Shown one piece after another: positions 17,083-18,222 of a stretch of 64,000 bases of DNA; the first letter of the stretch is position 1, and every line of letters starts with the position of its first letter. This stretch comes from Escherichia coli (lineage in GTDB: Bacteria > Pseudomonadota > Gammaproteobacteria > Enterobacterales > Enterobacteriaceae). Location of the stretch: NCBI RefSeq assembly GCF_030384885.1, contig NZ_CP128613.1. The stretch is one strand, 5' to 3'. A program made the position numbers and the translations under genes. The notes under the pieces were generated by a model that saw only the letters and a list, made by a program, of their open reading frames with translations, was not told where the DNA came from and searched no databases.

Positions 17083-17159
17083 GGCCCTGCACATCCCGTG
17101 GCCCCCTGCATGGCTATAGCATGGAAAGCGGAAGAAAAAGCGCAATGAGGTCGTAGGAC

Positions 17160-17340
17160 GAACGGTTCGGGGAAGGCTGAAGAGTACGTTTCTGGTCCTG
17201 AAGACCGGATAAACCTTCATCGGTCCAACGTTTAAGCCACTTGTAGCTAGTGGCAGGAGAAATGCCGTAGTGACGGACCCTGTAAATAATTCTGTGTAAC
17301 TGCCCACGATTAAAGGTGGCCGCTCAGGCGGTCACCGTAT
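17160..17340 (-). mobile_element. Degenerate remnant of an IS transposase N-terminal HTH region (IS481/IS3-like)
   Basis: Minus-strand translation ...GISPATSYKWLKRWTDEGLSGLQDQKRTLQPSPNR... matches transposase HTH pattern but is bounded by stops; no intact transposase or inverted repeats. Confidence 0.4.
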
Positions 17341-18222
17341 TCGATAATAAATTGTGTGATTCATAGACATCGTTTCAATTTTCTCAGCTCAAGTTCAAGC
17401 TGGTTATTCTGTTCCTGTATATGCTCCTCATTGGGCTGATAGTTTGCGTGAACGGCATCAGAGTATGGCGTTTTCTTAGCAAGTTCAAAGTAGCGCGCCA
17501 TCGGAGTTATCAGCCACCCACAGCTGGTCAGGATGTTCTGCCACGAACTGACGATTCACACAGTCGCCTGCGGCAACGACTTTCCTGCTGACTGTAAACA
17601 GAACGACGGTCGGCGGTGAAATAACGGTCTTTGCCCTCACCTACGCCATGGCCCAGCGCCCGGCTCATGTCGTACATCACGTTAGTAGCCATCGCTTTCA
17701 CGCGGGCATCCATTGCGGCGTCGTTCAAAACCATACCTCCCCAGCCGCAAATACCGGGTAACCTGATACTTCACAATAAGATTGGTGCGTGGATGATAGA
17801 TTGCCAAATAATAATCCATCAAGAAATAATGACAACAAAAAACATCAAGCATTCCTAATGTTATTTGGCCATATAAAACATTAATAACTCTTGACCTTTC
17901 CTGACATTTTCCATATTCGCAATCATATTCTGTTTAGACGTTGTTTATAAACATCATGCATAATGAAATCGTCATGTTATTTGGCGATATAAAAAAGTCT
18001 TTGAAAATACTCTCTACAACAAGTGCAGTTATAAGCTTGTTGTGACTGAGCGTCCTTGTGATTTAAAGATATTATCGTTCTTCATCAGATGTAATAACTC
18101 AGGAAATTATATTTTCAGGGTGACAGGCTAATCAAGAATGATTCTTTTTTATAAGCAATAACCGAATGACTGAATTGTTATATTTCTTTATTCAGCTGCT
18201 TAAATATAAACTTTGGAGAATT

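Follow-up and report, generated by a model that had tools for sequence, protein, structure and literature searches.

The patch at 17138-17767 of the window, which is the whole 64,000-nucleotide stretch of Escherichia coli DNA that was analysed, is approximately 0.6 kb of dead DNA composed of the leftovers of four insertion sequences (IS) and one broken hydrolase gene. It is very probably a non-functional graveyard of IS fragments, which was formed by nested transposition followed by deletions. When the patch was locally aligned to annotated copies of the elements, it was resolved into five abutting fragments, all on the minus strand, and a catalytic domain was kept in none of them. Judged from this anatomy, which is the ground for assuming a lack of function, the patch would be inert debris. 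The feature is of an ordinary kind, and annotations of related E. coli genomes already list it as fragments of pseudogenes. At the same locus of other strains, partial pseudogenes were recorded by PGAP at 17138-17275, 17353-17508, and 17597-17767, and no annotation was given for the IS256 end (17276-17352) and the IS3 piece (17509-17591). The features of the patch and its surroundings are as follows.

12184..17600, 5.4-kb block missing from N96, with the patch as its right edge (blastn of the window against N96, and junction sequences)
17083..17137, spacer of 55 bp between the stop codon of the ankyrin gene (17082) and the first IS fragment (ORF list)
17138..17275, minus strand, remnant of an ISEc19/YagA-like IS481 transposase (Pfam, NCBIfam, and tblastn)
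17276..17352, minus strand, terminal 77 bp of an IS256-family (ISEc39-like) element (DNA and C-terminal peptide matches)
17353..17508, minus strand, right end of an ISEc18-like IS481 element (DNA identity, 25/25 inverted repeat, and C-terminal peptide)
17509..17591, minus strand, internal 83 bp of an IS3-family orfB (92.8% DNA identity and in-frame peptide)
17592..17596, unassigned 5 bp (CTGTA) separating the IS3 and hydrolase pieces (alignment limits and the sequence itself)
17597..17767, minus strand, internal fragment of an alpha/beta hydrolase gene (exhaustive HMMER search)

The initial annotation had proposed that the remnant of an IS481/IS3-type transposase helix-turn-helix (HTH) lies on the minus strand, and an IS481-type remnant was borne out by Pfam, NCBIfam, the DNA match to ISEc19, and the tblastn match to YagA. 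The minus-strand frame starting at 17800 read ...RGQLHRIIYRVRHYGISPATSYKWLKRWTDEGLSGLQDQKRTLQPSPNRSSYDLIALFLPLSML up to a stop, as given there. The Pfam models HTH_29, HTH_28, HTH_23, and LZ_Tnp_IS481 scored above their gathering scores (E 1e-6 to 8e-5), with 29.1 bits for HTH_29 (cut-off 28.1) and 23.3 bits for LZ_Tnp_IS481 (cut-off 22.2). The NCBIfam IS481 transposase model NF033577 matched at model positions 21-62 with an E value of 1.7e-6, which was better than those of IS630 (3.3e-5) and IS3 (0.024), and its score was 27.7 bits against a cut-off of 224. By tblastn, the piece displayed 63% amino acid identity to residues 31-76 of YagA/ISEc19 and 78% identity to the metagenomic protein P0006; its DNA identity to ISEc19 was 74.6% over 130 bp. 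The homologous part was exactly 17138-17275, namely 46 codons with no internal stop, and covered codons 31-76, where the HTH is encoded and the leucine zipper begins. The HTH is thus present, but the piece is truncated at both ends instead of being interrupted by stops, as had been stated. The residues AATFNRGQLHRIIYRV preceding it are the translated IS256 inverted repeat. A canonical start codon, the DDE domain, and the ISEc19-like ends were absent from the piece, with homology stopping at 17138 and 17275, and no ORF of at least 30 aa beginning with ATG, GTG, or TTG was found for the HTH frame in the ORF list of the window. The junction 17137/17138, at the right edge of the 55-bp spacer, is an illegitimate one, which removes the C-terminal approximately 305 codons of the ISEc19-like transposase. 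Compared with ISEc19/YagA, an IS481-like element of the CP4-6 prophage region of K-12, the HTH piece is alike in residues 31-76; however, it is a divergent relative that is nearer to P0006, and just 46 of 380 codons remain.

The adjoining IS256 end (17276-17352) and the IS3 orfB piece (17509-17591) had both been missed in the initial inventory of the patch. The outer inverted-repeat end of the IS256 element was located at 17276 to approximately 17310, and the last 13 codons with the stop (FIIEYGDRLSGHL, then stop) at 17311-17352. This C-terminal peptide aligned with FIIEFGDRLSEHL, likewise followed by a stop, of an IS256 family member. The ends of the ISEc39 copies in Nissle and SMS-3-5 were 88-90% identical to 17276-17352 and collinear over the 77 bp. 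Since the flanks diverged exactly at the tip of the inverted repeat in all four loci compared, 17275/17276 is a true insertion junction. The complete transposase gene and the second inverted repeat were absent from the piece, which is cut at 17352 by the inverted repeat of ISEc18. The likeness to ISEc39 (IS256 family) therefore lies in the terminal repeat and the last 13 codons, and the difference is that only 77 bp remain here.

The third fragment starts with a 25-bp terminal inverted repeat, TGTGTGATTCATAGACATCGTTTCA, at 17353-17377, which was matched at 25 of 25 positions by both inverted repeats of ISEc18 in strain Ecol_224. ISEc18 copies were 90-93% identical to 17353-17508 at the DNA level. 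The remainder of the transposase comprises the last 48 codons and the stop (17361-17507), and its C-terminal peptide aligned with WP_001347735 (ISEc18, E. coli Ecol_224) as ...RYFELA..TPYSDAVHA.YQPNEEHIQEQN..LELELRKLKRCL up to the stop. The label given by PGAP to 17353-17508 was 'IS481 family transposase, missing N-terminus'. No rve match was obtained in this piece with Pfam and NCBIfam, and the left inverted repeat was absent too. The ISEc18-tail and hydrolase pieces alone gave no significant Pfam or NCBIfam match; they were identified from DNA matches and by the exhaustive HMMER search. Compared with ISEc18 (IS481 family), which is roughly 1 kb in length, the right inverted repeat and the last 48 codons with the stop were recognizable, but merely 156 bp remain, with neither the DDE domain nor the left end. 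The piece is a remnant, not an element.

An ORF noted earlier at about 17350-17490 does exist, at 17361-17501, but it encodes 46 aa and not 47. It had been described as coiled-coil-like and taken for the 5' fragment of a gene. Because it runs into the 25-bp terminal inverted repeat of the element, it must be a 3' end, and it represents the C-terminal end of the ISEc18-like IS481 transposase. We also considered the HTH piece and the ISEc18-like tail as the two halves of one internally deleted element, and this was rejected because the tail lies upstream of the HTH on the coding strand. Furthermore, the HTH piece was only 35% identical to the N-terminus of ISEc18, which indicates that the two pieces came from two IS481 elements.

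The IS3 piece (17509-17591) was 92.8% identical to an IS3-family transposase gene on plasmid NZ_CP065614 and read ...SRKVVAAGDCVNRQFVAEHPDQLWVAD, an in-frame peptide match to orfB. Positions 199-222 of NF033516 aligned to it with an E value of 0.017 and 14.4 bits against a cut-off of 160. What it shares with IS3-family orfB is an internal stretch including the conserved ...NRQFVAEHPDQLWVAD motif; in contrast to a complete IS3 element, 83 bp of orfB are left here, and the ends, the frameshift site, and the DDE region are missing.

For the last fragment, 17597-17767, the exhaustive HMMER search gave 200 relatives at E<=1e-3, and word-indexed protein searches returned only the fragments themselves. 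The full-length relatives (P0014, P0065, P0108, P0130, P0090, and P0042) are 317-372 aa in length and carry DLH, Peptidase_S15, PETase, or Abhydrolase_1 domains. The fragment aligned to about residues 153-210 of approximately 350 in these relatives, through ...GKDRYTTADRRAV, and the aligned part includes the nucleophile elbow GICG(W/F)GG, which is GICGWGG in the fragment (G-x-C-x-G, with a putative Cys nucleophile). No Pfam model was matched by the fragment alone, and the rest of the fold and of the triad is absent from it; the assignment comes from its alignment to relatives with those domains. In PGAP annotation, 17597-17767 was labelled 'alpha/beta hydrolase, partial'. An ancestral hydrolase-plus-fimbriae arrangement was not found in the contexts of the longer relatives P0007 and P0011 (a 1.2-kb contig; a frameshift-ridden genome, with unrelated context).

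The data establish the identities of the fragments and, in addition, two genuine IS-end junctions. At 17275/17276 and 17352/17353, the tip of one IS abutted the interior of another element, which argues for nested insertions. The other three junctions (17137/17138, 17508/17509, and 17591-17597) joined interior to interior or interior to unrelated DNA, and these point to illegitimate deletions at a later stage, in which most of each element was lost. As an interior-to-interior joint between the ISEc18-like and IS3 pieces, 17508/17509 is to be read as a deletion junction. We infer the following order of events and number of deletions. An ISEc19/YagA-like IS481 element would have been present downstream of the ankyrin gene. 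An IS256-family (ISEc39-like) element would then have inserted at codon 30/31 of the ISEc19-like transposase gene (17275/17276), and an ISEc18-like IS481 element would have inserted 77 bp inside the IS256 end (17352/17353). Subsequently, illegitimate deletions may have stripped the rest of all three elements: one would have joined the ISEc18 interior to the IS3 orfB interior (17508/17509), another the IS3 interior to the interior of the alpha/beta-hydrolase gene (17591-17597), and another would have brought the ISEc19-like gene up against the ankyrin gene's 3' flank (17137/17138).

One observation does not follow from a simple model of decay. A remnant next to yjhR in K-12/DH1 (2501-2577 of the compared locus) had 100% identity to the 77-bp IS256 end, and the two copies were broken at the same inner base although all of their flanks differed; the inner break is occupied by the ISEc18 end in the window and by the yjhR pseudogene in K-12. 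In a third locus, a longer remnant of the IS256 end was found, cut by an IS3. In view of the common break, the 77-bp end might be more than debris: some site-specific process may be at work, for instance at a strong target or cleavage hot spot of ISEc18 directly after ...GATAATAAA, or a hairpin-bearing module with some function may have been retained. We regard this as very unlikely. An AT-rich sequence of a similar kind, reading GTAATAAAA up to the joint, adjoins the end of ISEc18 in SMS-3-5, and ISEc18 might thus have a target preference. We considered a shared ancestry of 17345-17352 with the SMS-3-5 sequence and rejected it, since the likeness amounts only to AT-rich DNA next to an ISEc18 end at each locus.

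The small ORFs of the patch can be read from the same fragment boundaries. The ORF at 17528-17734 exists as noted earlier and encodes 68 aa, but it is not the 5' fragment of a gene. Its ATG is an internal Met of the hydrolase (GGM...), and after ...ADRRSV it enters the IS3 piece out of frame, reading ESRCRRRLCESSVRGRTS and a stop, compared to ESRCRRRPRKPSVRGRTS and a stop in frame 0 of the IS3 copy. One RefSeq genome names a 51-aa ORF at 17485-17640 'hypothetical protein'; the IS3 piece is in frame in this ORF and is flanked by hydrolase and ISEc18 sequences that are out of frame. It is very unlikely that one or more of the small ORFs (the HTH piece, the 46-aa ORF, or the 68-aa ORF) is a real small gene, for example a DNA-binding regulator or transposition inhibitor derived from a truncated transposase. 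Truncated N-termini of transposases that act as inhibitors are known in IS biology, the HTH piece is free of internal stops, and public annotations list a 58-aa 'helix-turn-helix domain-containing protein', which occurs in 266 blocks of the collection. Nevertheless, the HTH frame has no ATG, GTG, or TTG start in the window that would give 30 aa or more, and the start given to the annotated 58-aa product is a non-canonical codon within the IS256 inverted repeat. The HTH piece is devoid of its cognate ISEc19-like ends, the 46-aa ORF is only a C-terminal tail of a transposase, and the 68-aa ORF is an out-of-frame chimera. Furthermore, the HTH, ISEc18-like, and hydrolase pieces were all treated as pseudogenes by PGAP. 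Gene calls are not warranted for any small ORF in 17100-17760.

The surroundings of the patch were compared with other E. coli chromosomes. The earlier proposal of an insertion or deletion boundary between the effector-like pair, i.e. the leucine-rich repeat (LRR) and ankyrin genes, and the fimbrial operon held in the comparison with N96 and K-12, and alignment of the locus showed that N96 lacks approximately 12184-17600 and K-12 lacks 11291-17839. In N96, the flanks were the same with 99.0-99.6% identity in blastn, yet the 5.4 kb in between were missing, and the patch is thus the right edge of a 5.4-kb presence/absence block. Besides the IS patch, this block contains the LRR and ankyrin genes, a partial hypothetical gene, and the 5' half of a gene for an Xre/MbcA/ParS antitoxin. 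Both end points in N96 were within 2-5 bp of mosaic junctions, and both an insertion and a deletion are compatible with this. No direct or inverted repeats were found flanking the block; only a weak similarity of AAAAAAAG and TAAACAG was seen at the N96 junctions.

On a larger scale, a perfect dif site, GGTGCGCATAATGTATATTATGTTAAAT, was located at 11263-11290, and the homology to the hipA side of other E. coli ended there. Core homology resumed at 17840 in K-12, O157, and AZ153, at 83-88% identity. The whole of 11291-17839 (6.5 kb) is therefore accessory. In K-12, O157, and AZ153, the distance from dif to the point corresponding to 17840 is approximately 0.4-0.5 kb and holds a yneL/Z2199 remnant; Z2199, which is AraC-like, has been described upstream of the F9 fimbrial genes (PMC7766294). 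The hipA/dif-to-F9 (ydeQRST/fml) region of K-12 and O157 is thus at the same chromosomal position as that of the window, but it has the short yneL/Z2199 segment in place of the 6.5-kb decayed island. The patch is the right edge of this decayed accessory region, or genomic island, between dif and the F9 (ydeQRST/fml) fimbrial operon. K-12 also lacks 18045-21326, corresponding to the major subunit, the chaperone, and the N-terminus of the usher, which it is known to have lost.

An integrase-bearing defence island is present between dif and F9 in CD45 and WP5-S17-ESBL-11, and it was 85-94% identical to the window at 11338-12187, 12187-12621, and 14670-14847. In CD45, this island is approximately 33 kb in length, with site-specific integrase genes adjoining dif and with HamA/helicase and ABC-three-component system cargo. 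By contrast, the window has neither integrases nor defence cargo; in their stead it has the LRR and ankyrin genes together with the IS patch. Given the island of CD45 at the same site, the dif-to-F9 interval appears to be an integration hot spot, in which the window appears to hold a decayed relative of the island.

Several further observations were made in this region. The Xre/MbcA/ParS antitoxin gene, which encodes 110 aa with an HTH as its N-terminal half and is intact in CD45 and WP5-S17-ESBL-11, is split in the window on the minus strand into a 3' part (11878-12187) and a 5' part (14670-14815). The halves are 2.5 kb apart with the LRR gene segment between them, and the toxin-binding half at the C-terminus bears the annotation 'antitoxin' (64 aa). 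Tandem repeats of 60 nt (20 aa) make up the LRR protein (12992-14425, minus strand), for which no further Pfam domain was reported. The protein has 477 aa in the window, 519 aa in 2017-02-2CC, and 568 aa in 2013C-4282, and in draft genomes it ranges from 489 to 545 aa, a variation between strains that indicates a polymorphism in repeat number. The ankyrin-repeat gene (15118-17082, 654 aa) differed by 1.4-2.1% among related strains, compared to about 0.4% for the fimbrial subunit gene, and in 2013C-4282 it is 3'-truncated by a deletion reaching into the HTH remnant. Directly to the left of dif, where hipA is located in related strains, is a filamentous-phage module (8128-11290), in which the Zot-like protein encoded at 8128-9222 matched Pfam Zot with an E value of 5e-41 and 9137-10495 encodes a pIV-type secretin. 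The module has the look of a prophage that integrated at dif in an Xer-dependent manner. To the right of the patch, 17840-18165 and the fimbrial operon form a divergent allele, with 83-88% identity to the allele of about 4240 other complete genomes, and the upstream/operon allele of the window was at least 95% identical in only 18 complete E. coli genomes.

The position of the patch raises the question of a cis-regulatory module for the F9 operon, in which an outward promoter borne by an IS, or a terminator hairpin, would have taken the place of the AraC-like yneL/Z2199. The window does lack the yneL/Z2199 segment, a hairpin is present in the IS256 end, and promoter-like matches in 16900-18300 exceeded those in shuffled sequences (9 vs 2.8). 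However, this excess lies outside the IS patch: nearly all of the matches were in the AT-rich segment from 17770 rightwards, which is mostly core intergenic sequence (17840 on) common to all E. coli, and the sole promoter-like match within the patch (17378-17351) faces away from the fimbrial operon. The IS256 hairpin is weak (z -2.3 on one strand and -0.5 on the other), and no Rfam match was obtained in 16900-18300 in a scan at E<=1. Moreover, the end of the patch is 400 bp upstream of the fimbrial gene, and N96 retains the same operon without most of the patch. There is very little probability that the patch has such a role, and the reading as remnants of nested insertions is preferred here as well.

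The distribution of the mosaic was assessed in complete E. coli genomes by megablast. The whole 17050-17800 stretch was present in just 17 of 5426 genomes, and single sub-segments of it were found in thousands of them, at unrelated places. No plasmid carried the mosaic in the megablast search, which returned just piecewise IS matches from plasmids. In 13 related loci, every fragment was found with the same junctions and with 0-4 mismatches per fragment, with these exceptions: the hydrolase piece had a 13-bp gap at two loci, and in 2013C-4282 the HTH piece had lost 6 bp at its 17138 end. The adjacent ankyrin genes in these loci differed by up to 2%. Divergence in the patch was not above that of the neighbouring genes, the sites being too few to test constraint. 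The ten blocks read among the 266 that list the 58-aa HTH ORF share one chromosomal context, and in all ten the gene order was hipA, antitoxin fragment, LRR, ankyrin, patch, and F9 operon. Since the junctions were identical in the 13 related loci, the mosaic was formed once. It arose in the ancestor of a minor E. coli lineage and has been vertically inherited, as represented by the 17 of 5426 complete genomes. The odd juxtaposition of the fragments is all that speaks for an artefact of assembly or sequencing; this reading is refuted by the same junctions in 17 independent complete genomes and many draft assemblies, and its probability is practically nil.

In the lineage of the window, the island has taken the place of the AraC-like yneL/Z2199 remnant, which K-12 and O157 have upstream of their F9 genes. 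Accordingly, the genes for the LRR and ankyrin proteins should be regarded as cargo of the decayed accessory region beside dif and not as members of the fimbrial operon. The patch matters little in itself, but it is of use as a lineage marker and for the correct annotation of this region.
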